A stretch of DNA of 64,000 bases, from the NCBI GenBank assembly GCA_041476045.1, contig JBGOSQ010000001.1, forward strand, positions 8,846 through 72,845, given 5' to 3'. Both the position numbers and the translations under genes were made by a program. The DNA is from Thermoplasmata archaeon (GTDB lineage Archaea; Thermoplasmatota; Thermoplasmata; Lutacidiplasmatales; UBA184). Each line of letters opens with the position of its first letter. Positions within the stretch are counted from its first letter, which is position 1. Positions 103-51,373 of this stretch are shown here, piece after piece. The notes beneath the pieces are model-generated. The model saw only the letters and a program-made list of their open reading frames with translations. It was not told the origin of the DNA and did not search any database.

Positions 103-139
103 TCGGCGCGAGACCGGGCGCGCAAGATAAGCGCTTCGG

Positions 140-1773: not shown

Positions 1774-1875
1774 GGCCGGCGACCCGGTGGTGCCTATATA
1801 GACCTGACCCCGGCGGGCGCGCCAAGGACGGGAACCTTATTCCATCGACCCACACGTCCGAGCTACGGAGGTCGT

Positions 1876-2829
1876 GTGCGGATCCTCGTAGCGCTCGGGG
1901 GAAACGCTCTCCAGCGCGCGGGCGGGACCGGTACCTGGGCGGAGGCCACCGCCCAGATGCGCGCGACCGCCCCCGTGCTCGCCGAGCTGGTCCGCGACGG
2001 GCACGAGCTCCTCGTCACGCACGGGAACGGCCCCCAGGTGGGCGCCCTCCTCCGACAGAACGAGCTCGCGGAGCGCGAGGTGCCCCCGCGCCCGATGCAC
2101 GTGCTCGGCGCCGAGACCCAGGGACAGATCGGGTTCCTCATCCAGCAGGAGCTCACGGCGGCCCTCGAGCGCGCGAAGGTGCCGCGCGTCGTGGTCACGC
2201 TGATCAGCCGGATCGAGGTCTCGCCGAAAGATCCGGCGTTCAAGCGTCCGACCAAACCGGTCGGCCGGTACTATGATGAGACCGAGGCGCGCATCCTTCG
2301 GAAACGCGAGGGATGGGAGCTCGTCTTCGATGGGGCGCGCGGAGGATGGCGCCGTGTGGTCGCGTCCCCCAAGCCCGTCCGATGGGTCGAATCGGCGGCC
2401 GTGCGCCAGCTCGTTCGCGCCGGGTGGGGAGATCGGTGGGTGCCGATCATCGCCGGGGGCGGCGGGATCCCGGTCGTGGCGCGTGGGGGCGGGGTCTACG
2501 AAGGCATCGACGCCGTGATCGACAAGGACCTGACGGCAGCGCTCGTCGCGTCGGAGCTGGGCGTCGAGGTCCTGGCGATCGTGACGGACGTCTCCGGTGT
2601 GGCGACCGGATTCGGAAAATCCTGGGAGAAGTGGCTCGGGGATACCACGCCGGGGGAGCTGCGTGAGTGGCTCGCCCGCGGGGAGTTCGGCGAGGGGTCG
2701 ATGGCCCCGAAGGTCTCCGCGGGCCTCTCTTTCCTCGATCACGGCGGACGACGGTTCGTGATCACGGACATCCCCTCGCTCGGCCGTGCGCTCCGGGGCG
2801 AGGCCGGCACTCGGGTCAGTCGGGACTAA
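1876..2829 (+). CDS. arcC: carbamate kinase
   Basis: VRILVALGGNALQ...VTHGNGPQVG...GSMAPKV motifs of the carbamate kinase/amino-acid kinase family. GTG start 4 nt after a GGAGGT RBS. The upstream part of the long ORF 475..2829 is antisense to purB and is discarded. Confidence 0.85.
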   Translation: MRILVALGGNALQRAGGTGTWAEATAQMRATAPVLAELVRDGHELLVTHGNGPQVGALLRQNELAEREVPPRPMHVLGAETQGQIGFLIQQELTAALERAKVPRVVVTLISRIEVSPKDPAFKRPTKPVGRYYDETEARILRKREGWELVFDGARGGWRRVVASPKPVRWVESAAVRQLVRAGWGDRWVPIIAGGGGIPVVARGGGVYEGIDAVIDKDLTAALVASELGVEVLAIVTDVSGVATGFGKSWEKWLGDTTPGELREWLARGEFGEGSMAPKVSAGLSFLDHGGRRFVITDIPSLGRALRGEAGTRVSRD

Positions 2830-33873: not shown

Positions 33874-34284
33874 CTAGCGCTCGAGGAGTCCCCGACCCTC
33901 TCGGTCCCCCCGTCGGCGCGCGCGGGTCCGCTCCGACTGGTCCCGGGCGTGCTTGCGCAACGCCGGTAGCCGGTCGGTGTGGAGCTTCGTCAGCTCCCCC
34001 AGACCCATCGTCAGGACGAGGGTGAGCGCCCCGTCCACGCTCGACGCCCAGCCGTCTTCCACGATCTCCTCGAGCTTCGCTCGCAAGGAGATCGGCACGT
34101 CGAGCGCGCTCGGACCCGGGACCGTTTCCGGCGCGCTCAGGAGAGCGCGCACCGCTTCGGATCGGCTCGGGTTGCCGTGCGCGGTCCGCCATGCATCGAG
34201 GTGTTCCAGCTCGCTCTGCGTGAGTCGCACGCCGAGGAACCGGTCCGCCCGAGAGTCCGACCGGGGGGTCCGCACAGTGTTCAA
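33874..34284 (-). CDS. ribbon-helix-helix (CopG/NikR-like N-terminus) DNA-binding protein
   Basis: RFLGVRLTQSELEHLDAWRTAHGNPSRSEAVRALL is an RHH motif; divergent from the Kelch gene across an AT-rich region. Confidence 0.5.
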   Translation of the reverse strand: MNTVRTPRSDSRADRFLGVRLTQSELEHLDAWRTAHGNPSRSEAVRALLSAPETVPGPSALDVPISLRAKLEEIVEDGWASSVDGALTLVLTMGLGELTKLHTDRLPALRKHARDQSERTRARRRGDREGRGLLER

Positions 34285-34458
34285 CAGAATACAACGATTA
34301 CTTAATCATTGTGTAATTTCGTTAAACGATTCACCTTCCCGCGACCGCCGGGTCCGTGCCACTGTGTGGGGGGCGAGAGCAGTTATCCGGTTCCGGCGAA
34401 ATATTTCCCAGTTCTAAGTGCCCCGACCTTAAAGGGCAGAACGCCCGCAGGGGGGTCC
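34285..34458. promoter_or_regulatory. AT-rich divergent control region between the RHH gene and the Kelch surface-protein gene, with direct repeat AACGATT x2
   Basis: acagaatacAACGATTacttaatcattgtgtaatttcgttaAACGATTcacc is the only strongly AT-rich stretch in about 5 kb. Confidence 0.4.
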
Positions 34459-37400
34459 GTGGTCGCCTTCCTTCTGAACCTGGGAGCCTCTCGTCTTTCG
34501 CGCCGAACCCTTGGGATCGCCTTCGTGCTCGCAGTGGTCGGCGCGATGCTCATCGGGTCGATGCCGTCCGGGACCCATCTCGCCCCGTCGGGAACTCCTG
34601 CGATGCCGATCGGGTCGGACGCAGCGGCCAGTGCGCTCGCGGCTGCGAGGACATCGCTGAGTCTCGGGAAGGGTCCGACCTCGGCCGTTACTCCCTCCGC
34701 CACGGGCGGGGGACCGGGCCCGCAGCTGACCGCGGGCGCGTTGGGAACTCCGTGGAACCTATTGTACAATTACTCTCAGCCCTCGGCACGAGCGACCCCC
34801 GCGATGGCGTACGATCCTGCCGCGCACGCGGTCATCTATTTCGGCGGCGGCTGGAACCTCGGACAGTCGGGGAACGACACCTGGACGTTCGCGGGCGGAA
34901 ATTGGACGAACATCAGCGCGACCCTCTCCGTCGCGCCCGGACCGCGGGACGGCGCCGTCATGACATACGACGCAGCGGACCAATATATCGTGCTCTTCGG
35001 CGGCTTCACGAATTCGTTCGCCGGCGCGCCGAACACCTCCTGGGCCAACGGTTCCTACGCCCTCGCCGACACCTGGTCGTTCCAGTGGGGCTATTGGACG
35101 AACATCACCTCTCTTTCCCCTGCAGCGCCGCCCGCGCGCTTCATGGGGGCGATGACCTACGACTACACCGACGGCTACGCCGTCCTCTTCGGCGGTGACG
35201 CCCTCAACGGAACCCTGTTCAATGACACCTGGACGTTCTCCGGCGGCGTTTGGAACGACATCAGCGCGTCCGTGGGAACGGCACCGGCCGGACGTAGTTT
35301 TGCCGCGATGGCCGACGATCCATCGGACGGCTACGTCGTCCTGTTCGGCGGGTGGGACTCGATAAACTGGACGATCTTCAACGACACCTGGACCTTCTCC
35401 GCCGGATCGTGGACCCTGCTGCCGGCCGCTTCCGCTCCGCTGCAGCTGCGCGGCGCTGCGATGGCGTACGACGCCGCCCGGACCGAGCTGGTCCTGTTCG
35501 GTGGGGCCACCTACGGCTATTTCGGCCCCATCGTCCCGCAGGCGGAAACGTGGACCTTTGCCGCGGGCGCATGGACCGACATCTCCTCCACGATCGCGAG
35601 CGCCCCGCCCGCACGATTCTCCGCGGGCATCACGAACATCTCGTCCTCGGGTAGCCTCCTCATGGCCGATGGATGCCTCGCCGCAGGATGCTTCAGCTAC
35701 GTCGACATCTCCGACGGCTGGCTCTACAACGCCTCGGGACCGATCGGGCGCGCGTGGATCCCCGTAGGGGAATCCGACCAACCCTCCCAACGGGCCACGC
35801 CCGCGATGGCGTACGACGCGGTCGACCACTACGTGCTCTACTTCGGCGGCGGTTGGAACGTGGGCGAGTCCGTCGGCGACACCTGGACGTTCGCCAACGG
35901 TACGTGGACCAACATCACCGCGAACCTGACATCAGCGCCCAGTCCGCGCGAAAACGCGTTGATGACGTATGATGCCGGGGATGAGTACGTCCTCCTGTTC
36001 GGCGGTTACACCGATAACGGTCACGGCGGAATTGGTTCGTACACCCTTCACGACACGTGGAAGTTCACGGCGGGAGCCTGGACGAACATCACCGCCTTCT
36101 CTTCGACGGCGCCGCCGCCCCGGTTCATGGGAGCGATGACCTACGACTACACCGACGGCTACGCCCTCCTGTTCGGCGGCGACCAGCTGGGTTACAACGC
36201 GATGGCCGACACTTGGACGTTCAGCACGGGTAACTGGACCGACATCACCACAAGCTCCGGCCCGGCCCCGCCGCCGCGCAACTTCGCATCGCTGACGGAC
36301 GACCCGGCCGACGGGTACTTGCTACTGTTCGGCGGCTGGGACTCCGACACCCACACCGTCTACGGCGACACGTGGACCTTCTCGCACGGCGCCTGGACGC
36401 AGGTCACGACGCCCGTGGCACCGGTCCCGCTGCGCGGCGCCATGGTCGCCTATGAGGCGGTGGGAGGCTACGTCCTGCTCTACGGAGGCGTCACGTACTC
36501 CTCCCCCGGCTGGCCGTTCGGCCTCGAGAGCGAGACGTGGATGTTCTCCGGCGGTAACTGGACGAACCTGACGCCATACATCACGACCGAGCCGCCGGCG
36601 CGGTTCTCGGCGGGAATAACGAACATCTCCGACACCGGATCCATCGTCATGGCGGACGGTTGTCTCGGCCAAGGCTGCATTCCGTTCGAGGACCTCGCGA
36701 ACACCTGGATCTTCAACTGGACGAGCATCAACGGGACGCTGGGCCTCGCCGTTCATCCCACCCCCCTCGACCCGACGGCCTCCTTCGCCGTCACCGCGGT
36801 CGGGGGCAACTGGGCCTACCACTACGCGTACGACGGCCTCCCCGTCGGCTGCACTTCGATCGACTCCGCGTCCCTGACGTGCGTCCCCATCGGGGCCGGG
36901 ACCTATTCGGTCGGCGTGCTGGTCAGCGACACGGCGGGCCGGACCCTCGCGCTCTCGGTGAACCTGACCGTGCTGGGAGAGGAGCTCTCGATCGCGGCCG
37001 TCGCGTCGGTCCCCGAGCTCGATCTCGGTCAGCCGGTCGTCCTGACCGCTGCCGCGACCGGCGGCGCGGGCGCTCCGTGGACCTTTGGCTACCTGGCCCT
37101 GCCGCCCGGATGCACGAGCCAGAACTCGGCGTCGTTGTCGTGCACCCCGGCGCAGAGCGGAACGTTCCACGTCATCGTCACCGTGACCGATGCGTCCGGC
37201 CGAACGGCGACGACGGTGGTCGCGGTCCTGGTCCATCCCGCCGTGGTGGTTTCGGCGCTGGTCTCTGCGTCGACGATCGATCTGAGCGAATCGATCACGA
37301 TGTCGACCGCGGCCTCGTACGGTTCCGCGGTCTACCATTACGTGTGGTCGAACCTGCCGGCCGGCTGCTCGTTGCCAAGCGGTTCCACCGTGCAATGCAC

Positions 37401-38007
37401 CCCCACGACCGTGGGCACCTGGACGATCTCCGCCGGAGCGATCGACACGCTCGGACAGTCCGCGATGGTGGACCCGATCGGTCTCACCGTCAATCCGGTG
37501 CCGACCGTCCAGGGGTTGGCGACCGTCGGCGGGCCTTCGCAGCCTCTCTCCGTAGACCTCGTGGCCGATCTCGCGGGCGGCACGGCGCCGTTCGAGGTCG
37601 CGTGGGTCTTCGGCGATGGTCTGACGGGATCGGGCCTCTCGGTGAGCCACACGTACGGTGCGGGCGGCACGTACGCCCCGCAGGTCTTCGTCAACGACTC
37701 CCGCGGGTTCTCGGCCTCCTGGTCCGTCGAGGTCACCGTCCAGGCTCCCGCGATCGTCCACACCCCGCTCCCCCACATCGGGACGAGCGGAGGCGGCGGG
37801 GGGGCCTGGTACGACGCCATCGGCGGCGAGTTCGGTCTCGGCGTCGTGTTCGGGCTCCTCGCGCTGGCGATGGTGGGCATTTGGGCTGCGCGGCGACGCC
37901 GTGCGCTCGCCGACGCGACCCGGTTCGTCGAGGATCTTCGATCACCCGCGCCGACGATAGGTTCGTCCCACCGCAGCAACGACCCGGCAGACCGGGGGCA
38001 TCCGTAG
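34459..38007 (+). CDS. large surface protein: Tat-like signal peptide, about 12 Kelch/galactose-oxidase-type repeats, 4 PKD/Ig-like domains, C-terminal TM anchor
   Basis: SRRTLGIAFVLAVVGAML signal. Repeated YD...Y.VLFGG....NDTWTF..G.WTNI..APP.R units. Four roughly 95-aa YHY.W..LP.GC...S..C.P...GT..V...V.D..G repeats. GLGVVFGLLALAMVGIWAARRRR anchor. Confidence 0.75.
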   Translation: MVAFLLNLGASRLSRRTLGIAFVLAVVGAMLIGSMPSGTHLAPSGTPAMPIGSDAAASALAAARTSLSLGKGPTSAVTPSATGGGPGPQLTAGALGTPWNLLYNYSQPSARATPAMAYDPAAHAVIYFGGGWNLGQSGNDTWTFAGGNWTNISATLSVAPGPRDGAVMTYDAADQYIVLFGGFTNSFAGAPNTSWANGSYALADTWSFQWGYWTNITSLSPAAPPARFMGAMTYDYTDGYAVLFGGDALNGTLFNDTWTFSGGVWNDISASVGTAPAGRSFAAMADDPSDGYVVLFGGWDSINWTIFNDTWTFSAGSWTLLPAASAPLQLRGAAMAYDAARTELVLFGGATYGYFGPIVPQAETWTFAAGAWTDISSTIASAPPARFSAGITNISSSGSLLMADGCLAAGCFSYVDISDGWLYNASGPIGRAWIPVGESDQPSQRATPAMAYDAVDHYVLYFGGGWNVGESVGDTWTFANGTWTNITANLTSAPSPRENALMTYDAGDEYVLLFGGYTDNGHGGIGSYTLHDTWKFTAGAWTNITAFSSTAPPPRFMGAMTYDYTDGYALLFGGDQLGYNAMADTWTFSTGNWTDITTSSGPAPPPRNFASLTDDPADGYLLLFGGWDSDTHTVYGDTWTFSHGAWTQVTTPVAPVPLRGAMVAYEAVGGYVLLYGGVTYSSPGWPFGLESETWMFSGGNWTNLTPYITTEPPARFSAGITNISDTGSIVMADGCLGQGCIPFEDLANTWIFNWTSINGTLGLAVHPTPLDPTASFAVTAVGGNWAYHYAYDGLPVGCTSIDSASLTCVPIGAGTYSVGVLVSDTAGRTLALSVNLTVLGEELSIAAVASVPELDLGQPVVLTAAATGGAGAPWTFGYLALPPGCTSQNSASLSCTPAQSGTFHVIVTVTDASGRTATTVVAVLVHPAVVVSALVSASTIDLSESITMSTAASYGSAVYHYVWSNLPAGCSLPSGSTVQCTPTTVGTWTISAGAIDTLGQSAMVDPIGLTVNPVPTVQGLATVGGPSQPLSVDLVADLAGGTAPFEVAWVFGDGLTGSGLSVSHTYGAGGTYAPQVFVNDSRGFSASWSVEVTVQAPAIVHTPLPHIGTSGGGGGAWYDAIGGEFGLGVVFGLLALAMVGIWAARRRRALADATRFVEDLRSPAPTIGSSHRSNDPADRGHP

Positions 38008-38067
38008 GCAGCCGAGTACGATAGAACCCGAGGCGCGATACGGGGTGCGGGGGGGGACGCAGCCTCG

Positions 38068-38736
38068 TTGACCTCGCTGGATTTCTGGCTGGGCCTCGGC
38101 TTGGGCCTGGGGGTGTCGGTCGCCGTCCTCGTCGGATTCCGATGGTACTTCCGTCGGGCGATTCAGCAACGGTCTGCCACCGCCTCCGCGCGCCGCTCCG
38201 TACGGGCCGCGACGTCCGCTCCGGAACCCGCGACACCGATGCCACTGTCGGTCTCGGTCGCGCCGATCCGGCCCAATGGCAGCGCCGCCGGAAACCCCGG
38301 GAACGGTGGAATCTCCGCAACAGAGGCCGAGCTCCTCCCCACGCCGGAGAGGCACCGCCCCTCGCCGAGCCCGAACGTCCTCGACGAAGGACCGGTCCGG
38401 CTCTCCCAGCGGATCCTCCTGCACCTAGCGCGCAACGGCGGGCCTTCCGCCGGCGGAACGGCCAGCGAGGCGGTCACGCAGCGCGGGATCGGTACCGCGC
38501 TCGTCGTCACGCAGGGCGCGCTCTCCAGCGTCCTGAGACGATTGGAGGACGGCGGCGCCATCGCATCGGAGAAGGCCCACGTCCGCGACCGCGAGCGTCG
38601 CGTGAAGATCTACGTCCTCACCCCGCGCGGGCGCGAAGTGGTCGCCGCGCTCCGGCAGAGTGCGGTCGCGCGGCGCGGCGTCTCCGTCGCCGCCCCCGAA
38701 GCGCCGCCGAAGCGACCACCGTCGCCCTCTCGATAG
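38068..38736 (+). CDS. membrane-anchored winged-helix (MarR/PadR-like) transcription regulator
   Basis: N-terminal TM (GLGLGLGVSVAVLVGF), Ala/Pro/Ser linker, C-terminal wHTH (RILLHLARNGG...ALSSVLRRLEDGGAIASEK...KIYVLTPRG). Confidence 0.5.
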   Translation: MTSLDFWLGLGLGLGVSVAVLVGFRWYFRRAIQQRSATASARRSVRAATSAPEPATPMPLSVSVAPIRPNGSAAGNPGNGGISATEAELLPTPERHRPSPSPNVLDEGPVRLSQRILLHLARNGGPSAGGTASEAVTQRGIGTALVVTQGALSSVLRRLEDGGAIASEKAHVRDRERRVKIYVLTPRGREVVAALRQSAVARRGVSVAAPEAPPKRPPSPSR

Positions 38737-39093: not shown

Positions 39094-39789
39094 GTGGGAC
39101 TGGAGCCGCCGGACCCGAGCGACATCGACCGGCCGCGCCGATACCTGTGCGCGAGTCGTCGAGCGCGCTCGACCGAGGCGCGGTTCGATCGCCCCGACGG
39201 CTTTACGTATCCGACGGAGGCTGTCTCTCGCACGAGCGCGACGTCCGTCGGGGGACCGGAGACGTTCTACGTCAGTCTCAGCGACAATCTCCGGGATTGG
39301 CTCATCTTCGACCGGCTCCAGACGCTGCTGACGAAGATCGGCTCGGCCGACCACCTCCTCCCCCTGCTCGATCGACCCAAGGAGGGGATCGAGCTCTCCG
39401 ACGAGGCGTTCGCGCAGATTCGCTCTGCCTCGGGGATCATCTGCCTGTATTCCCGCGAGGCGGACACGTCGTACTGGGTGCAGCTCGAGCTCTACGTCGC
39501 GAGCGCCCTCGGCAAGCCCGGCTGCCTCGTGATCTTCCCGGAGGTCCCGTTCCCATCGTGGATGACCGGTTCCGTGTTCCGCGTCGAGCTCGAGGGGTTC
39601 AAGGACAGCGGTCCGGGGCTTCCGCCCGGCACGGACGAGGGGCAGTTCTTCCACCGGAGCGTGTTCGCCGAACATTCGCTCCGGTCGATCGTGGCGTTCG
39701 TCGAGGGGGTCCGCGCCCACCGGCTCCCCGCGCTGCCCGAGATCCCGCGTCCGCGGCCCGAGCTCCTTCGGGAGCGTCGGATCACCTAG
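39094..39789 (+). CDS. TIR-like domain protein
   Basis: FYVSLSD (betaA), GIELSDEAFAQIRSASGIICLYSREADTSYWVQLELYVA matches the TIR pattern V.lS..Y..S.WC..EL including the catalytic-Glu position. Strong GC3 bias supports this strand. Start uncertain. Confidence 0.5.
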   Translation: MGLEPPDPSDIDRPRRYLCASRRARSTEARFDRPDGFTYPTEAVSRTSATSVGGPETFYVSLSDNLRDWLIFDRLQTLLTKIGSADHLLPLLDRPKEGIELSDEAFAQIRSASGIICLYSREADTSYWVQLELYVASALGKPGCLVIFPEVPFPSWMTGSVFRVELEGFKDSGPGLPPGTDEGQFFHRSVFAEHSLRSIVAFVEGVRAHRLPALPEIPRPRPELLRERRIT

Positions 39790-39846: not shown

Positions 39847-42800
39847 CTATACGCCGGCCCGGAACTCGGCCGTGAGCCGATCGGAGGCCGACGGATCCAT
39901 CAGCGCCGGGTTCACTGGAAGGATGAGCCGCCCACCGCTCTCCGAGGCGAGCGCATCCAGCTCGTGGAGGAAGTCGATCGTTCGCGCGCTGCCATGGATG
40001 CGGACCAGGTACTCGACGCCCTCGATGTAGGCGGTGCGGCCCGGGCCGCCGCCGAGGAAGGTTCGGAACAGCGCCCGCAGCGTCTCCAGGTCCCCGGGGC
40101 GGACGGATCCTTCCCGTCCCACGTTCGAGAGCCATACGACGCGGACGTTGCGCGACCCCAAGGCCGCGCGCAGCCGCTCCGGGAATTCCCGACTGAGGCA
40201 GAGCCCGGCAACGCCGGCATCGGTGAGCTCGAGGAACGTAGCCCAGGGCCGGTCGGCGGTCGGCTCGGTCCAGACCTCGACGCCCGAGGGCGGGGGCGGC
40301 GGCGCGGCCGGCGCTTCGGGGGCTGGGACCGGGACCGGCGCAGCCGGCTCGGGGGGTGGCGATGGCGCCTCGGGCTCCGGTTCGGGTTCCGGAGGCGACG
40401 GGGGAGTCGGAAGCTCGATTCGGGGCGCGACCGCGAGGATCGGGTCCGGGATCGACGAGGGCAGGAGGGCCGAGGCGACCTCGATGGTGGCCACCGCAGC
40501 CACCGTGGGGAGGGAACGGGGGGGCGGTTCCGATGGGACGCGCTCGAGGATCAGCGGAGGAGCGGGTCGCGTCAGCTCCATGACGGCGACGGGGGGAGGC
40601 GGAGTAGCGGGAGAAATAGGAGGAACGGAGACCTCCGGTGGCTCACGCGGTCGCATCGGGCGGATCCGAGGGGGCGGCGTGCCTCCGAAGCCCTGCACGA
40701 TCGTCGCGGCGAGGACGGGCCCGAATCCCTCGACCTCGGCCAGCTGCTCGTAGGGGGCGTGGGCGACCGCGTCGAACGAGGTGAGCCCGCTCTCCCACGC
40801 CCGCGCGAGTTTCGCGGGCCCGATGAGCGGGCGGCCGAGCGCGTGGTCGAACGATTCCACCGCTTCGCGGATCGCGGCCTCGCGGGCGCGGAGCCCTTCG
40901 TCGAGAAAGTCGATCACGACGTCGTCGCCGATCGGGCGCCCCGTCGCCCGCCGTCGCGGTCGGCGGGGTCGGGGCGGCTTGCGCCGCGAGGAGACACCGA
41001 CGGGGACTCCCGGGATCCAGAGCGACCACCGCTCCCCCCGGCGCGTCCGACCGTGCGTGGTCTCCGCGGAGACGAACGAGGCGGCATCGGCGGCCACGAC
41101 GATCTCGACCCCTTGCAGGAACTGGCTGATGGCGGCCGCGTGGCGCGTCAGTTCCTCGCCGAGCGTGCCCGATGCGGAAAAGACGACGCGGTCGATCGCC
41201 GAGGGGGTCGCGGCGCGATTGAGGCGGCGGCGCAATAGGTGGAGGAGGCGGAAGCCGTCGGGAGTGAGCGCCGGTGGAGCCGCGTCGCCGCGCCCGGGCA
41301 TGTCCGACGGAAGCGTGACGAAGAGGTCCCCGTGCGCCCACGGGATCGGCACGACGCCCGTCGCCAGCGCCTCCGTGATCTCCACCATGCTCGGGGTGAT
41401 CGGGAGCGGATGGCCCTCGAGCACGAGCTCGAGGCTCCGGGCACGGATGCCGTCCTGGATCCGCGTCGGGCTCATTCCCTCGAGCATCCGAAGGATCCGC
41501 GGCGCCTGGAACGGGTAGGCGCGCTGGATCTCCTCGGGTACGGCGTGGATCCGGACCTGCTTGCCCTCCCAGGGCTGAGAGGGGGAAGCGACGTCGACGC
41601 GTTCGACCCCGGCGAGTCGCTGGAGGACGGCCCGGTGCGATCGGAGCTCGCCGGCCACGGTCTCATCGGTGACGGAGAGGACGATCGCGGGGAGGTGCGA
41701 ATCCGGCGCGAGACCGAGCTCGCTCCGGTACTCTCTCAGCGTGTCGACGACCGAGCGCCATCGCGCGTAGGAGAGTTCGAGCGGCGAATCGAGCAGCAGC
41801 TCCTGGCTCGGCGTGAGCGGTCGCTCGAAGATGCTCGTGCCGTCGCCGCGGAAGCCGCGATGGATCGCCTCCATCGTGAACGGGGCGATCGGCGCGTACA
41901 GTTCCGCCCACAACGGCAGGACGTGCCCGAGGACCCGGCACGCGGCCGCCTTGGGCAGGGGGAACCCGGGAAGATCGAGGCGCGAGCGGGAGAACGCGAG
42001 GTAGCCGGCGCGCAGCTCCTCCTCGAAGAACCGCACGAGTCGGTCCTGCGCCACGTCGACCGCGCCAGTCTCGTAGGCCCGGATGACGTCGATCCGCATC
42101 CGTTCGAAGAGCGACAGGAACGCGCGATCCTCTTCCGGGAGCTCGGCGACGTGGCCGCCGATCGAACGCGGGTCCGGTTCGTAGCCGTCGCGAAGGAACC
42201 GGTCGAGGATCTCGCGTGCGACCTGCCAGATCTTGCGGAGCCGCCGTTCCTCCTGATGACGGCGATCGCCGAGACCGGGGTCGTTGGCCCGCGGCGAAGT
42301 GGCGGTACGCAGGAGCGCGGCCCGCAGCGCGTCCGCCGGGGCGTCGAGCGAGGTCGTCTCGCCCTCGGCCTCGAAGGGAAGCGTCGGCATCGGGACGACG
42401 CGGACCTCGCCGGGGGCCGCGCCCGCGGCCGCGAGTGCGACGGCGTGGTGGACGAGCGCCGGAGCCCGACGTCGTTCGGGGACGTAGAGACGTACGGCAT
42501 CCGCGTCCGGGAACGGACGGTCCGTTGCCCAGATCGCGAGCGCCTCCTGCAGCGAGGGAAGGAGGCGGCGCGCCACCGTGCGCCAGTGCGCGCCGCAGGT
42601 GCATCGCTCCGGCGCGTCGGCGATTGGAGAGAGACGTCCGCAATGGACGCATTCCAACAGATGCGGCGCGTCGGCCGCCTCGGTCGTGCGCCACTCGCTC
42701 ACCGGCCACGCGACCGGGTCCTCGGTCTTCGGGAACGACTCTGCGGGGGCGAGGCGTGCCAGCCGGTCCCGGACCGCGGGCGGTGCGGTGCTCGCGTCGA

Positions 42801-43935
42801 GGCACCAGGCACGCGACGGTTGCCAGTAGAGCGCCGTGCCGCAGACGATGCAGTGGGGCACACCGCGGTGGACGCGCAGCTGCGCGAACAGGAGCCCGGA
42901 CTCGGTGAGGTCACGGAGGACGAACGCCTCGGCCACGTCGACGGGCAGGCCGGCGTACTTGTGCTGGAGGTCCCGGACGAGCTGACCCTCGGCATCGACG
43001 ACCGGCCAGCCCGGGATCCCGAGATGGAACGCCGCCGCGGCGTCGCCGGCACCGTGGGCAGGGACGAGGGCCACCGCGCCGGTGCCGGAGTCATCGACCT
43101 CGGTGGACGCGGCGATCTGCCCCGCCGGGACCGGAAGGCTCGCGAGCGTGGGGAACTCGGTCGCGAGCGGATGCTCGTAGCGGAGACCGACGAGCGTCTC
43201 TCCCTTCTGCTCCTCGAGGACCTCGATCTCGCATCCCTCGAGCCACGACTTGAGACGGCCGATGGCCGAGCTCAGGACGAGGAGCACCTCCTCCGTGCCG
43301 CGGCGTCGATAGCGGATCCGGGCGTACGTGAGGTCCGGGTGGACCAAGACCGCGCTCGTCCCCAGGAGCTTCCACGCGCTGTCGATCCAGACGAGAAGGC
43401 TCGTCCTCGGGGACTTGCCGTCCAGGAGGAAGCGCACGAGGTAGGCGTCGCCGTCCTCGGCCGAGTACACGATGCCCTCCGGGGAGCGGGGGGCGCGGCA
43501 CGCCGGGCACGACCGGAGCGGGAGCTCGCGGCTCGCGAGCAGGCCGTCGCGTGCGAGGTGGTCGACCATCTCCTGGATCTGCGGCGGGCTCGCGACCTCC
43601 GCGAGGGGCTCGAGCCGACCGTTGCCGACCCAAACCCCCGAGGCGGCCAACATCGGTCGGAGGACCTCGAGCGCCGGGTGATCGGTCCGACGTGCCAGGA
43701 GGCGGCCGCGGGTGGGATGTCCTTCCAATCCGAGGAAACGGGATTCGGCATCCGCCCGGACGGCGCGCTGGAGGAAGGAGATCGCCGAGTCGTAGGCCGC
43801 GAGCGCGGCCACCATCTGGTGGAGTCGCGGCCCCGTGCCGCGGCCTCCCGATGTCGGTAGCGACCTCGCCTTCCAGAACGCCGCCGATTCGGCCTGTACC
43901 TGGGCCGGTTCGTAACGGGCCGGAAGTGAACGCAT
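39847..43935 (-). CDS. isoleucyl/valyl-tRNA-synthetase-like pseudo-enzyme fused to HhH motif, Pro-rich linker and an unknown C-terminal alpha/beta domain (1362 aa)
   Basis: Class-Ia aaRS architecture retained: zinc knuckle CPACRAP; YLVRF...LLVWIDSAWKLLGTSAVLVHPDLTY where WTTTPWTLP sits; SGTGAVALVPAHG CP1; CIVCGTALYWQPSRAW. Catalytic HIGH, EGSDQHRGWF and KMSKS positions read PRLHQM, PERRRAPALV and GETTS. The C-terminus has GLTSFDAVAHAPYEQLAEVEGFGPVLAATIV (HhH) and PEPEPEAPSPPPEPAAPVPVPAPE. Confidence 0.6.
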   Translation of the reverse strand: MRSLPARYEPAQVQAESAAFWKARSLPTSGGRGTGPRLHQMVAALAAYDSAISFLQRAVRADAESRFLGLEGHPTRGRLLARRTDHPALEVLRPMLAASGVWVGNGRLEPLAEVASPPQIQEMVDHLARDGLLASRELPLRSCPACRAPRSPEGIVYSAEDGDAYLVRFLLDGKSPRTSLLVWIDSAWKLLGTSAVLVHPDLTYARIRYRRRGTEEVLLVLSSAIGRLKSWLEGCEIEVLEEQKGETLVGLRYEHPLATEFPTLASLPVPAGQIAASTEVDDSGTGAVALVPAHGAGDAAAAFHLGIPGWPVVDAEGQLVRDLQHKYAGLPVDVAEAFVLRDLTESGLLFAQLRVHRGVPHCIVCGTALYWQPSRAWCLDASTAPPAVRDRLARLAPAESFPKTEDPVAWPVSEWRTTEAADAPHLLECVHCGRLSPIADAPERCTCGAHWRTVARRLLPSLQEALAIWATDRPFPDADAVRLYVPERRRAPALVHHAVALAAAGAAPGEVRVVPMPTLPFEAEGETTSLDAPADALRAALLRTATSPRANDPGLGDRRHQEERRLRKIWQVAREILDRFLRDGYEPDPRSIGGHVAELPEEDRAFLSLFERMRIDVIRAYETGAVDVAQDRLVRFFEEELRAGYLAFSRSRLDLPGFPLPKAAACRVLGHVLPLWAELYAPIAPFTMEAIHRGFRGDGTSIFERPLTPSQELLLDSPLELSYARWRSVVDTLREYRSELGLAPDSHLPAIVLSVTDETVAGELRSHRAVLQRLAGVERVDVASPSQPWEGKQVRIHAVPEEIQRAYPFQAPRILRMLEGMSPTRIQDGIRARSLELVLEGHPLPITPSMVEITEALATGVVPIPWAHGDLFVTLPSDMPGRGDAAPPALTPDGFRLLHLLRRRLNRAATPSAIDRVVFSASGTLGEELTRHAAAISQFLQGVEIVVAADAASFVSAETTHGRTRRGERWSLWIPGVPVGVSSRRKPPRPRRPRRRATGRPIGDDVVIDFLDEGLRAREAAIREAVESFDHALGRPLIGPAKLARAWESGLTSFDAVAHAPYEQLAEVEGFGPVLAATIVQGFGGTPPPRIRPMRPREPPEVSVPPISPATPPPPVAVMELTRPAPPLILERVPSEPPPRSLPTVAAVATIEVASALLPSSIPDPILAVAPRIELPTPPSPPEPEPEPEAPSPPPEPAAPVPVPAPEAPAAPPPPPSGVEVWTEPTADRPWATFLELTDAGVAGLCLSREFPERLRAALGSRNVRVVWLSNVGREGSVRPGDLETLRALFRTFLGGGPGRTAYIEGVEYLVRIHGSARTIDFLHELDALASESGGRLILPVNPALMDPSASDRLTAEFRAGV

Positions 43936-45546: not shown

Positions 45547-46176
45547 TTACGGACAGGCCGCCGCGCTGGAGCACTGGTTGAACACGACGTTCACCGAGTT
45601 GATCACCGGCGCGGTGGCCGTACCGAGGTCGACGAACAGGAAGACCGTGATCGCCGATGTCGTGACGACGCCCGTCGTGCCCGTCGCGAGGTAGCCGATC
45701 GCGCTCACCGTGGAGGTTACGACGCCCACCGTGATCGAGATCTGGACCGCGAGATCGAACCCGACGCTGTTGCCAGCGGCGCCCGCCGGTTGCGTGACGG
45801 TCATGACGATCTGCTCGCCGAAGTTGCCCGTCGTCTCCGTCGCGGGGCTCGCGGTGATGAAGTTCGCGAGCGGGCAGGGCCCGGCCGCGCACGTCGAGAG
45901 GGCACGAGGAGTACCGTCGAGACCCGTCGCGCCGACGATCTGCGTTCCACCCGTGAGGGAACCGGTCATTCCCACCGTCAGGACCACGAGCTGCTCCGAC
46001 GTGATCGCCGCAACACCGGCGAAGCCGCCGGGCGAGGGGGTCTGGGTGACGTTCGTCGACTGCTGCGGGCTCAGGGTCGTCACGGTCGTCGCGGCCAAGG
46101 CGTAGCCGCCGATCATGGCGATCATTGCGGCCGTGGTGGCGAGATAGATCGTTCGTTGCCGACGTTTCGTTGTCAT
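45547..46176 (-). CDS. small secreted protein (Sec signal MTTKRRQRTIYLATTAAMIAMIGGYALA), Thr/Gly/Val-rich, C-terminal Cys pair
   Basis: ATG at 46176 preceded by a G-rich RBS; Sec-type signal; paralogous to 44814..45359. Confidence 0.5.
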   Translation of the reverse strand: MTTKRRQRTIYLATTAAMIAMIGGYALAATTVTTLSPQQSTNVTQTPSPGGFAGVAAITSEQLVVLTVGMTGSLTGGTQIVGATGLDGTPRALSTCAAGPCPLANFITASPATETTGNFGEQIVMTVTQPAGAAGNSVGFDLAVQISITVGVVTSTVSAIGYLATGTTGVVTTSAITVFLFVDLGTATAPVINSVNVVFNQCSSAAACP

Positions 46177-46210
46177 AGTTCCGTAGCCCCCCCGGGGAGG
46201 CGAAGGCAAC

Positions 46211-46768: not shown

Positions 46769-47236
46769 CGGCACCGGCTCCCCACGACCGCCGCCCGCGC
46801 TGGGCGACCCATCTATTATATCGTGGGCCCGGCATGAATTCCCGTACGGGCCTCGCCCCGGTGGGCGTCGGGCCTAGTACACGGGGAGGCGCAGGCCACG
46901 ACGGGTTCCGGTGGGCTCGGGTCCCTCCCATCATCGCGCCTCACGAAGATCCTCCAGGAAAAGGCGGAGCTCCTCAAGCGGCAGCGCCAGACCGCCGAGC
47001 AATCGTTCCACGATGCCCAGCTGCGCGCCAAGCTGCTCGCGAAGCTGGGCATCGCGGTCCCGGAGGCCGGGGAACGCGAGTCCGCGATCCTCGCCCTCAT
47101 CAAGAGGACCGACTGGGAGGGCGTCGAGACCCAGGCCAGATCGTTCCTCGAATACCTCCTCAGCTCGACCCTGTCCGGATTCGCGGACCGCCGGAAGGAG
47201 CTCACCGAGCTCGGCAGCCGGCTCGTCCAGAACGGA

Positions 47237-50200
47237 ATGCCGTTCCCCGAAACGTTCGTCGAGACCCTCTCCCTCGCGGTCGAGCCTCCCGGGGACGGGG
47301 ACTGGGGGCCCGCGCTTACCGCCCTCGCCCAGATCCTGGAGATGCTCCGGACCGCCGAGGACGCCTTCGGCGAATCGATCCGGACGCGGGCCCAGGCGCT
47401 CGCCGCCTGGTCGGGTGAATCGGAGGACCGACTCCCGGCCCTCGAGGGTCGACTGCGTACGGCCCTCGAACCGCTACGCGAGGGGGACATCCCGAAGGCG
47501 CTGGGACAGGTCAATGACGCGATCACCCACGAGCTACCGAAGGTGGGAGCGCGCCGCGAGGTCGCCCGGGCCGACGGCACGGCCCTCCTCGGTGCCGCGC
47601 GGGACCTTGGGCTTCCGAACGACGTTCTCGATCGCGCGCTGCGTCTCGACTCGCAGGCAACCCCCATCGACTGGAAGGCGACCGTCGAGGCGGTCGAGTC
47701 GGCGAACAACCAGGTCGGCGAGGCGCTTCGCTCGCGCGTCGCCGCCACGTTGGATTCGCTCCGCGCGACGTTGGAGTCGCTCCGAGAATACGGCGTCGAC
47801 CCCACGGAAGCGCTCGCCCAGATCGGGGAGCTGATGGGAGCCGTTCCCACCGCGCCGCCGAACCAGGTGCCGCGACTGCTCGAGCAGGCGCGCGGGATCA
47901 CCGAAGAGCCCGTGGTCGGGATCGTGGCGAGCCTCATCGACACCGTCCGCCCGCGCCTGGTCGAAGCCCGGCGCTTGGGGCGTGACCCGAGCGAGGTGTT
48001 CGCAACGATGAACCGAGCGCGCGAGGCGCTCCGGCTCAAGATCTACTCCGAGGCGCTCGCCGCGAGCCAGGAAGCGCTCGACCGCGTGAGCAACCTCACC
48101 GCCGACCTGGACTCGGCCCGCGAGGAGGCGGAATCGTTGGGGGAGCTCCTCCGCCGTCTCGAGGGGGCGCGATTCCCGACCGACCGGTTCGCCCAGGCGC
48201 TCCAGAAGATCCGCGACCGTCTCGCGGCCGTCGAGCTCGAGGCGGCCCAGACGCTGCTGCGCGAGACCCTCCGCACGATGGGCCAGGAAGCGGCCCAGTT
48301 CTTTTCCGCCCGGCTCGCGATCGTCGAGTCCGTCCTGCCGTTCGCGCGCGAGCGCGGGTTCCTCCCTCCCGACCTCGAGGACGATCTCGCGACCGTCCGA
48401 CGCCACCTGGACGACGGTCGTATCGCCGACGCGGGCGAACTCCTGAGCGCGCTCGAGGTCCGCCTACGGACCACGGCCCTCCCGTACGTCACGCGACGGA
48501 TCGAGGAGCTCGAGAAGGGGTTCACCGAGATCCCCGACGAGTCGCTCATCACTCCCGTCCGCCGCCTGCTCGCCGACGCCGACGTGAACCTCCACGTGAA
48601 GGAGGACCTCCCCGCATCGGCGGAGAGCCTTCGGCGCGCGGAACGCGAGTTCACCTCGGTCTTCGCCGCCCATGCTTCCGCCATGGTCGAGCTCCTCGAG
48701 GAGGAGCGCCGGACCTTGGAAGCGATGGGCGGGGCGGGCGACGAGATCCAGCGCCAGATCGACGAGGTCCAACAGATCTTCAACATGGGGGATTTCGTCA
48801 AGGCCTCGCGGGCGTCGCAGGAGATCCGGACCCGCGCCCACCAGCAGCAGCTCCTCCGCGGCGAGGATGCCATATCGCACGCCAAGCTCGCTCTCGTCGA
48901 GCTCGGCAAGATGGGCGTCGAGGCGGGGCCGCTCCGCACGACGCTCGAGCAGGCGCTAGAGGCCGCGAAGGGGCAGCGATATTCGGACGCGTACCGGATC
49001 GCTGCGGAAACCCAGGACGCCGCCTTGCGGCTCAAGGCGAAGGCCCAGTCGATCCTCGACGGTCTCGCGGCGGCGAACGAGCTGTTCCAGGAGCTCAAGT
49101 CGGGGGGCGTGACCATCGATGTCCACCGCGACAAGATCCGGCTCGCCCAGGTCGCCTACCAGGCGCTCGATTTCGACGGGGCGAAGGACACGCTCGATGT
49201 CCTGATGGCGCTGATGCGCTCCGAGCTCGCCAACGCGGAAACGCGTCGCCTCATCGCCGAGGCCCGGCTCCTCCGCGAGGACGGCCAGCGCCTCTCGATC
49301 CCGACCGACGCGCTGGCCGCCCGGATTACCGAGGCGCAGAGCGCGCTCGACGACGGCCGTTCGTCCGAGGCGCTCCAGAGCGCGCGCCGCGTCGGAACCG
49401 AGCTCGTCGAGACGCTGCGCCCCGTCCTTGCGGAGAACCTGCGGACCCTCGAGCAGGACCTCGAGGTGGCCCAGTCGGCCGGCCTCGACATCGCGCCGGT
49501 CGTCGAGGTCCTCGGGGAGGCGCGGCGCCGTCTCGGCCTTCCGGTTCCGGTGGGCGTCGCCGAGCTCGTCGAGCGCGCGAGCGCCCAGCTCGTGGAGACC
49601 CGCGGCTTCCTCGAGCACGCCGACCGCGCCCTCAAGCGCGCGGCGGAGGCGTTGAACCAGGGCGAGCTCGTGCGCGCCTCGGTCCCGAACGGACGCGATC
49701 GCCTCGCGGCGGTCGAGACGACCCTCAAGCGGCGCGACTACGCGCGCGCGATCGAGCTCGCCGGCACGCTCGAGCGCGAGATGCTCCAGGTGACCTACCA
49801 GCAGGTGTCGAAGAACCTCGCCGGATTCCAGGGCGTCCTCGTTCGGGCGCGCCAGGCCGGCGGGGACACCGCGATCGCGGAGAACCTTTTGATGCAGGCG
49901 CGCCAGGCGCTCGAGGAGGGTCGTCCCCTCGAGGCGCTCCAGCTCGCCTCCCGTAGCGAGGCCGAACTAGAGCGCGTCGAGCTCCAGCTACGGATCGCCG
50001 AAGGTTCCCTCCGCACGATGCAGGGCAAGCTCGAGTCGGCGGAGAAGGAGGGACTGCAGGCCCGCGTCGCGCGGGAGAAGCTCGCCGAGGCCGAGCAGTC
50101 GTTCCGCGATCACCTCTACCCGATCGTCCTCGAGCTCGCGATCGACGCCTCCGACTCGCTCGCGGTCTCGCGCGAGGGGTTCCGGCGGGCGCGCGAGGCG

Positions 50201-51373
50201 CTCGATTCCGCGGACCGGCAGGTCAAGTCGGCGATGGAGCTCGGCGCAGACGTCGCCGAGGCGATGCCGGTGCTCGAGGCGGCGCGCTCGGCTCAGCAGA
50301 CCGGCGACTATCCCGACGCGACGCGCAAGGGTCGGGAGGTCGCGGAGATGGCGCGGTGGGCGATCGAGCGGCTCTACTCCGGCGCCCTCAGCGATCTGCG
50401 TCACCTGACGGAAACGGCGCGCGCCGCCGGCCTTCCCGACGACGCGGCCGATCCGAGCCGCGGGGTCGAGGAGGTCGAGACCGCGCTCCAGACGCGCGAT
50501 TGGAAGCGCGCGAACGAGCTGCTCCAGTCGGCGCGCGAGTCCACGACGGCCGCGATGACCGCGCGCCTGGACGGTCGGATCGCCGAGATCGAGTCGCTCT
50601 ACGCCGCGATGGGAGCCCCGCCGGAGCCCGAGATCCCGCTGCGGGAGGCGGCGCGGGCCCGGATCGCCGAGGCGCGCACCCGGGGGGCGTTCGCGGAAGC
50701 CCTCGGGGTCCTTCGGGACGAGGAGGCGCGCATCGCCGAGCATCAGCGCACCGACCTGCAGGCGCGGGTCACCGCGCTTCGCGAGCGCCTCTGGATCGGC
50801 GAAAAGCTGGGCGTCGACACGACACCCGTCATGGAGATCTTCAGCGAAGGTCAGCTCGCGCTCCAGTCGGGGAAGCTGGTCGAGGTCCCGGCATTCGTCG
50901 ATCGGGGCGAGGAGCTCCTCCGCTCGCTCGTCGCGACCCGGGTCCCGGAGCGCCTCCGCGAGACCCAGACGGAGCTCGTCTTCGCCCAAGAGGGGCTTCA
51001 CGTCGCGCTCGACGACGTCGCCGACCGTCTCAAGGCCGTCGGCGCGCTCCTCTCGAGCGGCTCCCCTATCGAGGCCGCCCAGCTCGTCCTGACCTCGACC
51101 GAGGAGCTCAACCGACGCAAGGCGCTCCACCGCGAGCTGATGAACCTCCACTATCTCATCGACGCCGCGCTGGGACGCGCGGCGGAGCGCCACGTCGACA
51201 CCGCGGCCGCCCGCCGGCTCCTCGACGAGTCGATCCACGTGCGCGTGACCGACTACGCCCTTGCGCTCGAAAAGGCGCGCGAAGCGCTCCGGCTCCTGCA
51301 GGGACAGCTGCAGGGGACGGAGAGCGTGACGCCCGCGAACTTCTGGCCGTTCCGCAAGGCGCCCGGGGCCTGA
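47237..51373 (+). CDS. giant all-alpha repetitive protein (at least 1378 aa; frame open back to 46838 with no canonical start)
   Basis: Low-complexity, Ala/Leu/Glu/Arg-rich helical repeats (...EALQ.AR....EL...LR...L..L..DLEVAQSAGLD..PVVEVL.EARRRL...). The same frame upstream of 47237 encodes TKILQEKAELLKRQRQTAEQSFHDAQLRAKLL..., a clear coiled coil, yet contains no ATG/GTG/TTG. Confidence 0.6.
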   Translation: MPFPETFVETLSLAVEPPGDGDWGPALTALAQILEMLRTAEDAFGESIRTRAQALAAWSGESEDRLPALEGRLRTALEPLREGDIPKALGQVNDAITHELPKVGARREVARADGTALLGAARDLGLPNDVLDRALRLDSQATPIDWKATVEAVESANNQVGEALRSRVAATLDSLRATLESLREYGVDPTEALAQIGELMGAVPTAPPNQVPRLLEQARGITEEPVVGIVASLIDTVRPRLVEARRLGRDPSEVFATMNRAREALRLKIYSEALAASQEALDRVSNLTADLDSAREEAESLGELLRRLEGARFPTDRFAQALQKIRDRLAAVELEAAQTLLRETLRTMGQEAAQFFSARLAIVESVLPFARERGFLPPDLEDDLATVRRHLDDGRIADAGELLSALEVRLRTTALPYVTRRIEELEKGFTEIPDESLITPVRRLLADADVNLHVKEDLPASAESLRRAEREFTSVFAAHASAMVELLEEERRTLEAMGGAGDEIQRQIDEVQQIFNMGDFVKASRASQEIRTRAHQQQLLRGEDAISHAKLALVELGKMGVEAGPLRTTLEQALEAAKGQRYSDAYRIAAETQDAALRLKAKAQSILDGLAAANELFQELKSGGVTIDVHRDKIRLAQVAYQALDFDGAKDTLDVLMALMRSELANAETRRLIAEARLLREDGQRLSIPTDALAARITEAQSALDDGRSSEALQSARRVGTELVETLRPVLAENLRTLEQDLEVAQSAGLDIAPVVEVLGEARRRLGLPVPVGVAELVERASAQLVETRGFLEHADRALKRAAEALNQGELVRASVPNGRDRLAAVETTLKRRDYARAIELAGTLEREMLQVTYQQVSKNLAGFQGVLVRARQAGGDTAIAENLLMQARQALEEGRPLEALQLASRSEAELERVELQLRIAEGSLRTMQGKLESAEKEGLQARVAREKLAEAEQSFRDHLYPIVLELAIDASDSLAVSREGFRRAREALDSADRQVKSAMELGADVAEAMPVLEAARSAQQTGDYPDATRKGREVAEMARWAIERLYSGALSDLRHLTETARAAGLPDDAADPSRGVEEVETALQTRDWKRANELLQSARESTTAAMTARLDGRIAEIESLYAAMGAPPEPEIPLREAARARIAEARTRGAFAEALGVLRDEEARIAEHQRTDLQARVTALRERLWIGEKLGVDTTPVMEIFSEGQLALQSGKLVEVPAFVDRGEELLRSLVATRVPERLRETQTELVFAQEGLHVALDDVADRLKAVGALLSSGSPIEAAQLVLTSTEELNRRKALHRELMNLHYLIDAALGRAAERHVDTAAARRLLDESIHVRVTDYALALEKAREALRLLQGQLQGTESVTPANFWPFRKAPGA

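Follow-up and report, generated by a model that had tools for sequence, protein, structure and literature searches.

The subject of this analysis, within a 64-kb stretch of Thermoplasmata archaeon DNA (the window, ~70% GC throughout), is a large surface-protein gene, and the unexpected part is the gene that follows it. The surface-protein gene (34459..38007, + strand) starts with GTG and encodes a predicted type I membrane protein of 1182 aa with two Kelch propellers followed by Ig-like and PKD domains. Directly downstream, a second gene with a TTG start (38068..38736, + strand) encodes a 222-aa winged helix-turn-helix (wHTH) protein that is predicted to be tethered to the membrane. Gene order and sequence comparison indicate that the two are specifically linked, in a pairing that is conserved across related loci, predictable from a short motif in the cytoplasmic tail of the surface protein, and represented elsewhere by fused one-component relatives. 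We lean towards a reading in which the Kelch/PKD glycoprotein and the tethered wHTH protein would form a sensor and transmembrane transcription regulator (TTR) pair. A membrane-anchored wHTH gene immediately downstream was part of the original prediction made for this locus, and that proposal has gained substance: the transmembrane (TM) helix is conserved, the wHTH fold is modelled and the link to the Kelch gene is specific. We found no description of a surface-protein/tethered-wHTH module in the literature.

The relatives of the wHTH protein lead to eight distinct loci: the window, L001, L002, L004/L005, L006, L007, L008 and L009. In all eight, the upstream gene on the same strand encodes a TM-anchored Kelch or PKD protein rich in N-x-S/T sequons, and in every partnered locus the same-strand gap between the surface-protein and wHTH genes is 18-120 nt. 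The upstream protein is a double Kelch/PKD protein of 1182, 1174 and 1165 aa in the window, L001 and L002, respectively; a 634-aa single Kelch protein with no PKD domain in L004/L005, where the wHTH protein is 33% identical; a 500-aa PKD protein in L007; and a surface protein of 844, 683 and 813 aa in L006, L008 and L009. The pairing is thus kept despite wHTH identities down to 33% and partners that differ in size and architecture. Profile scans with the wHTH alignment recovered one locus from genome contigs and two from metagenome contigs, and a word-indexed protein search returned 20 relatives. At least two separate pairs, L001 and L013, occur in a single genome, GCA_022749895.1. In the window the gap is a 60-nt spacer (38008..38067, + strand) with a G-run, GCGGGGGGGA, about 12 nt before the TTG; because this spacer is GC-rich and has no AT-rich, promoter-like element, the two genes are likely to be co-transcribed.

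The pairing can be predicted from a motif that directly follows the TM helix of the surface protein (37888..37941, + strand in the window; ARRRRALADATRFVEDLR) and that, in the AlphaFold2 (AF2) model, extends this helix into the cytoplasm as part of one continuous helix. Its consensus, RRxxLxx[ED][GA]xx[LIV][VA]xx[LIM], is present in all 11 of the surface proteins that precede a wHTH gene; examples are RRRRALADATRFVEDL in the window, RRRRALAEGRALVDRL in P0003, RRARLRREGEELVRAM in L005, RRVRLAREGESLVSRL in L008 and RRLRRDGEELVREM in L007b. In a blind test, three paralogues that carry the motif (P0035, P0045 and P0061) all proved to have a TM-wHTH gene downstream, the products being divergent members of the same family (profile E-values of 9e-23, 2e-22 and 2e-18, respectively). 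With these three, the arrangement is seen in 11 independent loci. In the window protein, the E-G position of the consensus is occupied by D1151-A1152. None of four motif-negative paralogues is partnered: P0009 and P0012, and also L007a and a 659-aa zinc-ribbon-tailed Kelch protein in L013, which are incidental neighbours. Among the 120 best Kelch relatives, 74 are TM-anchored, and 17 of these were found to carry the motif with a regular expression and two more by eye, so that roughly a quarter of the TM-anchored members sampled combine the tail motif with a wHTH partner. The tails of other members are Pro-rich, acidic or zinc-ribbon. The last of these form a third tail class, with a zinc-ribbon-like CPYCGTQN...C..C end in P0011, P0014, P0016 and the L013 protein encoded at 24..2003, which suggests another intracellular connection.

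Part of the two-gene arrangement also occurs as a single polypeptide. An exhaustive profile search with the wHTH alignment, used to gauge the size of the family, gave 1,482 cluster representatives at E<=1e-3, 597 at E<=1e-10 and 119 at E<=1e-30. Of 155 family sequences that were classified, 71 have the stub form found in the window, 41 are fragments or mis-started, and 43 are long PKD-TM-wHTH proteins. The long forms (390-475 aa) run from a signal peptide through one or two PKD domains with 4-9 sequons to a TM helix, a linker and the wHTH domain, and PKD domains are present in all ten that were scanned. The PKD-linker-TM-basic segment of P0229 and P0194 aligns colinearly with the fourth stalk domain, linker, TM helix and tail of the window Kelch/PKD protein (34% identity over ~130 residues, E 1e-12), and the P0229 alignment takes in a tail-like RSRTALARRRLEDDL. 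Because the products of the two adjacent genes are partly one polypeptide in these relatives, the genes appear to be functionally linked. A related arrangement is seen at L007 (3645..8170), a run of three PKD surface-protein genes. The product of one is extremely rich in sequons (5.6 per 100 aa, with 31 in its 558 aa), the tail motif is found in the second, and the third encodes P0137, a fusion of the form PKD-PKD-TM-wHTH. Fused regulators can therefore also follow a tail-motif partner.

The wHTH protein begins with MTSLDFWLGLGLGLGVSVAVLVGFRWYFRR, which comprises an acidic outside stub of four residues, a TM helix (residues 5-24) and a run of positive charges. The family alignment has the same conserved N-terminal TM segment, in which positive charges come after a [DE]FxxGLxxGL motif. 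We have good confidence that the protein is single-pass with its N-terminus outside and its C-terminus inside, and the outward N-terminus is independently confirmed by the fused PKD-TM-wHTH relatives. The TM helix leads into a basic juxtamembrane helix and then into a Pro/Ala-rich linker of about 60 residues that is modelled as disordered. The wHTH domain itself (residues 111-205, nt 38398-38682) is modelled at pLDDT >90 with helices at 112-123, 138-145 and 149-161, a hairpin of strands 165-172 and 178-184, and a final helix at 186-205; it has both the three-helix bundle and the beta-hairpin wing of the fold, and its top 30 Foldseek matches are to MarR, MepR, SlyA and PadR. Pfam PadR, MarR_2 and HTH_34 match at E-values of 5e-6 to 1e-4, below their gathering cut-offs, and NCBIfam PadR matches at 6e-8; the curated cut-offs are missed by PadR (26.8 vs 27 bits), MarR_2 (22.8 vs 27) and TIGR03433 (32.7 vs 101.8). 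By these profile scores the domain is a divergent MarR/PadR relative and not a member of a curated family. A TTR has been defined as a protein that combines a predicted DNA-binding domain with at least one TM region (Demey et al., 2023; PMC10269533), and the wHTH protein has both, in the form of the conserved TM helix at residues 5-24 and the wHTH fold.

Public annotation hides this topology. In the NCBI record P0122 (165 aa), the wHTH protein begins only at residue 58 and so lacks the TM helix, and many of the 'cytoplasmic MarR' annotations in these metagenome-assembled genomes (MAGs) may really be membrane proteins. The start-codon calls that conceal the TM helix of the regulator are corrected here. 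Elsewhere, the L014 wHTH gene (~6130-6726) is called as 105 aa and its frame runs on upstream through a TM-like segment, and the JGI call for P0003 (L002, ~5934) starts about 25 codons late, losing the n-region of the signal.

The Kelch/PKD gene is real. It occupies most of a maximal open frame at 34309..38007 (+ strand), and the protein P0001, on a 95.7-kb NCBI MAG contig, is identical to its product. The AF2 model of the 1182-aa protein, built on 48 relatives (mean pLDDT 80.7, propellers mostly >90), shows, from the N-terminus onwards, a first helix (residues 15-32), a second that is short and conserved (53-68), 12 four-stranded blades from ~91 to ~752, four beta-sandwiches at 757-1090 and one long helix at 1126-1161. 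The blades close into two six-bladed propellers, the first spanning residues ~91-424 (34729..35730, + strand; 13 sequons) and the second residues ~425-756 (35731..36726, + strand; 9 sequons), each with a pair of cysteines in blade 6 (C406-x4-C411 and C735-x4-C740). Pfam detects Kelch_KLHDC2 at 3.9e-62 in six stretches, with Kelch_3 and Kelch_4 above their gathering scores, and the blades follow the consensus DGYVLLFGG...DTWxFxxGxWT. In Foldseek searches six-bladed Kelch domains align structurally with each half (LZTR1, TM score 0.79, rmsd 3.3 Å over 331 columns), and the Kelch domains of KLHDC3 and ESP are also among the matches. Profile detection and closed four-stranded blades both place the protein among Kelch propellers, and the modelled blades, Foldseek and Pfam agree on the 12 or so repeats in two six-bladed propellers that had been proposed from inspection. 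The halves are 57% identical to each other over 319 aa, and therefore the second propeller appears to have arisen by tandem duplication of the whole unit. The short helix at 53-68, between the signal segment and propeller 1, carries an A-x-x-S-L-x-x-G-x-G-P signature that recurs in distant paralogues.

Between the propellers and the membrane lie four beta-sandwich domains. The first three are Ig-like repeats of the form 'GLPxGC...C' (residues 757-1014; 36727..37500, + strand), recognized from Pfam PKD, He_PIG and K319L-like matches, the AF2 model and a repeat alignment, and their cysteines pair as 798/808, 885/895 and 970/980. The fourth, membrane-proximal domain (residues 1015-1095; 37501..37743, + strand) is the only one with the canonical PKD motif WxFGDG and has no cysteine. 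The idea of four PKD/Ig repeats, each with a Cys pair, was thus right as to the four domains, but the Cys pair occurs in only three of them. PKD profiles score above their curated cut-offs (PKD_4 at 4e-14, 52.8 bits against 27, residues 1012-1094; PKD at 4e-10, 39.9 bits against 23.5, residues 854-921), in keeping with the beta-sandwich fold. By hydropathy and in the model, the chain then enters a TM helix rich in small-xxx-small spacings (residues ~1124-1143; 37828..37887, + strand; EFGLGVVFGLLALAMVGIWA), followed by RRRR and 37 further residues, as expected from the proposed C-terminal anchor and poly-Arg stop. The combination of GEF, a TM helix and RRRR prompted us to consider an archaeosortase sorting signal (PGF-CTERM or PEF-CTERM), which we rejected: there is no NCBIfam match, and the 37 residues after RRRR include a conserved helix. 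Taken together, Pfam, AF2, Foldseek and the TM helix with its RRRR support a membrane-anchored extracellular protein, and we assign it with good confidence to the type I membrane proteins, its large ectodomain being dense in sequons.

At the N-terminus, a hydrophobic segment (residues 18-33; 34510..34557, + strand), identified by hydropathy and coinciding with the AF2 helix at 15-32, follows an Arg-rich n-region that carries S-R-R-T-L-G. This had been taken for a twin-arginine (Tat) signal, which would make the protein a pre-folded propeller directed by its arginines to a TatAC translocase. The S-R-R does lie two residues before the 16-residue hydrophobic segment, RR is also found in the n-regions of the orthologues P0002 and P0006 and of the re-extended P0003, and beta-propellers are plausible Tat cargo in general, yet we consider Tat export very unlikely. 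The sequence RRTLG has Gly at +4 and fails the TatP pattern RR.[FGAVML][LITMVF], to which 97% of the training set conform (PMC1182353). The h-region, at a mean Kyte-Doolittle value of 2.8, is typical of Sec/SRP signals and lacks the moderate hydrophobicity of Tat signals, and scans of the protein against Pfam and NCBIfam gave no match to the Tat-signal models PF10518 and TIGR01409 at E<=0.01. The twin arginines are not conserved among orthologues, being absent from the n-region of P0004, and of 78 relatives whose N-terminus has a hydrophobic segment, RR occurs in the n-region of 33 and only three fit the TatP pattern. TATFIND, too, disallows Gly at +4. RR is in any case expected by composition, since the protein is encoded at 70% GC, contains 0.2% Lys and has Arg as nearly its sole basic residue. 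No tat genes were found among the genes of the window, and there is no clear AxA-type cleavage site after the h-region. We conclude from these features that the N-terminus would act as a signal peptide of the Sec type or as a signal anchor that stays uncleaved. The frequency of RR in this proteome is illustrated by another secreted or membrane protein, of 220 aa and with no family match, encoded at 45547..46209 (- strand), in which an Arg/Lys-rich n-region with TTKRRQRT precedes a hydrophobic segment.

The ectodomain is strongly enriched in N-x-S/T sequons. There are 25, which use 25 of the 41 Asn residues, and 23 of them lie in the Kelch region. Shuffling the ectodomain gives an expectation of 7.3±2.4 (z 7.4), with a maximum of 18 over 20,000 shuffles, and the motif read in reverse, for which composition predicts the same number, occurs nine times. 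Across the remaining genes of the window, taken from a GC3-based gene set, we counted 20 sequons in 15,891 residues, or 0.13 per 100 aa compared with 2.1 here, a difference of about 17-fold. A density above background had been set beforehand as a check on the original prediction, and the protein passes it clearly; sequons are also present in nearly every blade (10-11 of 12), but a count of 25 does not amount to the 'dozens' envisaged. The notion that sequons are built into the repeat consensus needs qualifying: the conserved DTW(T)F and GxWT belong to the structural consensus of Kelch blades, and the Asn that completes NDT, NWT or NIT is present in only some blades. Nine sites are kept in all five orthologues, and the NDTW sequons at 255 and 308 in about 29 of 42 distant family members. 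The enrichment is family-wide and extends to non-Kelch parts: the family median is 2.16 sequons per 100 aa, the observed/expected ratio is 3.1, 120 relatives contain 3,022 forward and 1,122 reverse motifs, and PKD-only neighbours reach 5.6 per 100 aa. AglB is the archaeal oligosaccharyltransferase that acts on sequons; no AglB gene was found among the genes of the window. Extracytoplasmic sequons enriched over chance are what is expected of an AglB substrate, and the Kelch/PKD ectodomain is probably densely N-glycosylated. Surface proteins that are densely N-glycosylated are well known from acidophilic archaea (PMC2948927, PMC12448462), including Sulfolobus SlaA with its 31 sequons (PMC2948927) and the filaments and surface proteins of Thermoplasmatales (PMC12448462).

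In itself, sequon richness included, the Kelch/PKD protein is unremarkable within its very large, already annotated family. A protein search found at least 1,847 relatives at E<=1e-5 among 8,000 candidates scored, and the named ones are 'Thermoplasmata archaeon' MAG proteins annotated as 'PKD domain-containing protein' or 'kelch motif-containing protein'. One match is identical, five are orthologues at 52-55% identity that share the full-length architecture, and the remainder are paralogues at 30-40%. Several paralogues occur per MAG (GCA_022749895.1, for example, is the source of both P0002 and P0045, and L3K08 locus tags are found on three members); the 64-kb window contains no second one. 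The closest named orthologue comes from MAG SubAcS15-120, a Lutacidiplasmatales (formerly TMEG) genome from acidic soil with a GC content of ~69% (PMC9287336). We found no mention of the Kelch/PKD family in the literature.

The size and glycosylation of this family bear on the main rival to a sensor role, in which the protein would be a structural coat glycoprotein of an unordered exterior or S-layer-like envelope, protecting the cell in acid soil by a shield of glycans; the wHTH protein would then be no more than an ordinary autoregulator located at the membrane, or a bystander. We regard this as possible, if somewhat unlikely. It would account for the very high sequon density throughout the family, for the very large number of paralogous TM-anchored ectodomains and for the lack of a wHTH partner in most of them. 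It also fits what is known of cultured Thermoplasmatales, which have no crystalline S-layer and are instead covered by a dense, unordered and heterogeneous glycoprotein layer of ~20 nm whose components are unidentified (PMC12448462); by analogy, one may speculate that Kelch/PKD-type proteins are candidates for such an exterior layer in this related order. An S-layer-like role as originally proposed finds no support, however, in family homology: neither Pfam nor NCBIfam gives a match to the S-layer families (S_layer_N/C, DUF1608, SlaA, halobacterial S-layer glycoprotein), and several paralogues per MAG count against a single dominant S-layer protein. Moreover, the tail motif strictly co-occurs with a wHTH gene and PKD-TM-wHTH fusions exist, neither of which is expected of a passive coat.

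The propeller fold raises another alternative. Galactose oxidase and sugar-binding proteins are among the known Kelch propellers, and the protein might be an extracellular enzyme, a nutrient-capture lectin or an adhesin that binds or oxidizes soil polysaccharides or glycoconjugates, with no part in signalling. Pfam does name Kelch_3 and Kelch_4 'galactose oxidase, central domain', a glucoamylase-family gene lies beside the L014 pair and a sedolisin-type protease gene beside the L001 pair, and Lutacidiplasmatales are predicted to be organoheterotrophs living on carbohydrates and peptides (PMC9287336). We nonetheless find this most unlikely, as the protein has no catalytic-domain match and the Kelch domains closest to it in fold (LZTR1, KLHDC2, KLHDC3) are ones that bind proteins; in addition, the neighbouring genes are inconsistent across loci, and the tail motif and wHTH coupling would go unexplained. 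Binding of such a ligand would be compatible with a sensing role.

The DNA upstream of the Kelch gene offers a candidate site of regulation. Two blocks (34398..34436, + strand) are all that is conserved in this region among the window, L001 and L002, the remaining intergenic DNA having diverged, and we suggest that they are promoter and operator elements. Because both keep a fixed distance from the GTG at 34459 in the three orthologous loci, this GTG is the best start. The proximal block, TTAAAGGG (TTAAA(A)GGG across loci; 34429-34436), is centred ~26-27 nt before the GTG, the usual position of the archaeal TATA box when the mRNA is leaderless. The distal block is a perfect palindrome, (C)GAAATATTTC(G) (34398-34407), centred ~56 nt before the GTG and ~30 nt upstream of the TATA-like block. 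It was found with a custom script, a standard inverted-repeat search of the upstream regions having given nothing useful, and is confined to the three orthologous loci, with no copy upstream of other surface-protein/wHTH pairs. Its conservation makes it a candidate operator. The AT-rich stretch at 34285-34335, which had been singled out upstream of the gene, was rejected as the Kelch promoter: it is not conserved in the orthologous loci, and the conserved blocks sit at 34398-34436. The divergent gene beyond it (33874..34284, - strand) encodes a probable ribbon-helix-helix (RHH) protein of 136 aa (RHH_1 at E 0.0033, below the cut-off), which had been described as a dedicated regulator. This too was set aside, since the RHH_1 match is sub-threshold and the gene has no counterpart in either orthologous locus examined, its place being taken by a 1641-aa pro-kumamolisin-domain protein in L001 and by another Kelch-PKD paralogue in L002.

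These observations suggest how a sensor-regulator pair might work. The Sec-type signal or anchor would take the chain across the membrane and leave two six-bladed propellers outside, carried by a stalk in which a PKD domain follows three Ig-like domains with disulfide staples; the ~25 sequons of the protein would be N-glycosylated by AglB. The ectodomain might sense a ligand, contact or a surface through its propellers, with the basic amphipathic juxtamembrane helix RRRRALADATRFVEDL facing the cytoplasm after the TM helix. The state of the receptor could then reach the tethered wHTH protein through TM-TM contacts, through contact of the tail motif with the regulator's own basic juxtamembrane helix, or through both; the TM helices of the two proteins are both rich in small-xxx-small spacings. 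Such a relay would alter the dimerization, DNA binding or proteolytic release of the tethered wHTH domain, which its flexible linker of ~60 residues would allow to reach DNA from the membrane, where it would control transcription, possibly of its own operon via the palindrome. It is from the conserved pairing, the tail motif and the fusions that we infer a coupling between the two proteins.

Several observations weigh against this model. Gene adjacency would also fit a plain autoregulator of a surface-protein operon, and the neighbouring genes show no consistent functional theme across loci. The wHTH profile scores fall below curated cut-offs, DNA binding being read from the fold alone, and the Foldseek match of the Kelch/PKD protein to hybrid two-component sensors is low (TM score 0.17-0.25). 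The motif-negative control sample is small (n=4), and about 55 of the 74 TM-anchored family members have neither motif nor partner; because most of the family lacks both, the basic role of the ectodomain appears to need no regulator. More tentatively still, and short of calling it probable, we suggest that the pair is one example of an undescribed archaeal family of two-protein signalling modules that has multiplied in acid-soil Thermoplasmata. In such modules a receptor would control a tethered MarR-like factor via an RRxxLxxEGxxLVxxL helix and TM-TM contacts, the PKD-TM-wHTH proteins would be a fused one-component version, and the regulator family would number at least 597 clusters at 50% identity.

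Other genes downstream of the pair deserve brief mention. An open reading frame at 39094..39789 (+ strand; 231 aa, GC3 0.88), between the wHTH gene and an IleRS-like gene, has a sole match to TIR_2 (E 0.029, below the cut-off); it is not found at this position in L002 and may be a TIR-like insertion. The IleRS-like gene (39847..43935, - strand) encodes 1362 aa with sub-threshold similarity to IleRS/ValRS (116 bits against a cut-off of 621) that covers the surroundings of the editing/CP1 region and the anticodon-binding domain, followed by a long Pro-rich linker and a C-terminal DUF835; a 1351-aa counterpart occupies the same position in L002. To judge by these matches, the product resembles a degenerate paralogue of an aminoacyl-tRNA synthetase to which DUF835 has been fused. 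Further along, a very large open reading frame (46838..51373, + strand; ~1378-1511 aa) has a strong coding GC3 signal and no match in Pfam or NCBIfam.

Little is known of how archaea transduce signals across their membranes, and the Lutacidiplasmatales/TMEG archaea, though abundant in acidic soils, are uncultured. If the pairing acts as we suggest, it would provide a testable model of how surface events are coupled to gene expression in wall-less or S-layer-less archaea, the tail motif would supply a sequence rule for finding sensor partners, and the surface proteins would become candidates for the unidentified 'exterior protein layer' of Thermoplasmatales.

Comparison with known systems helps to place both proteins. 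Like archaeal N-glycosylated envelope proteins such as SlaA and the surface glycoproteins of Thermoplasma, the Kelch/PKD protein is predicted to be extracellular and has one sequon per ~40-50 residues. It differs from SlaA and S-layer proteins in that it has no sequence or fold relationship to them, carries its own TM anchor and belongs to a set of many paralogues. The Bacteroides hybrid two-component sensors BT4663 and BT4673, which are among the Foldseek matches over ~900 aligned columns, resemble the pair in having tandem propellers, an Ig-like (Y_Y_Y) domain, a TM helix and a DNA-binding output, and some Kelch-family paralogues likewise carry Y_Y_Y matches. At the TM scores given above, the resemblance is an architectural analogy only; these sensors have seven-bladed, non-Kelch propellers and combine histidine kinase, receiver and AraC domains in a single polypeptide.

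The closest functional precedents, by analogy, would be the TTRs that are encoded next to accessory membrane proteins, namely ToxR-ToxS, TcpP-TcpH and VtrA-VtrC (PMC10269533); the TTR survey lists ArnR of Sulfolobus as the only characterized archaeal membrane-bound transcription regulator (PMC10269533). As in all of these, the window regulator is predicted to hold a winged helix at the cytoplasmic face by a single TM helix. As in the ToxR-ToxS type, the neighbouring gene codes for another single-pass membrane protein, one of whose domains is extracytoplasmic (PMC10269533), and several paralogous pairs can occur in one genome. In contrast to that type, however, the window regulator has the reversed topology, with an N-terminal TM helix and a C-terminal wHTH domain of the MarR/PadR rather than the OmpR type, and in its split form has essentially no outside domain. 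Its partner, encoded upstream, has a very large Kelch/PKD ectodomain, and the candidate contact between the two would be made by a cytoplasmic tail motif, where in the ToxR-ToxS type it is periplasmic.

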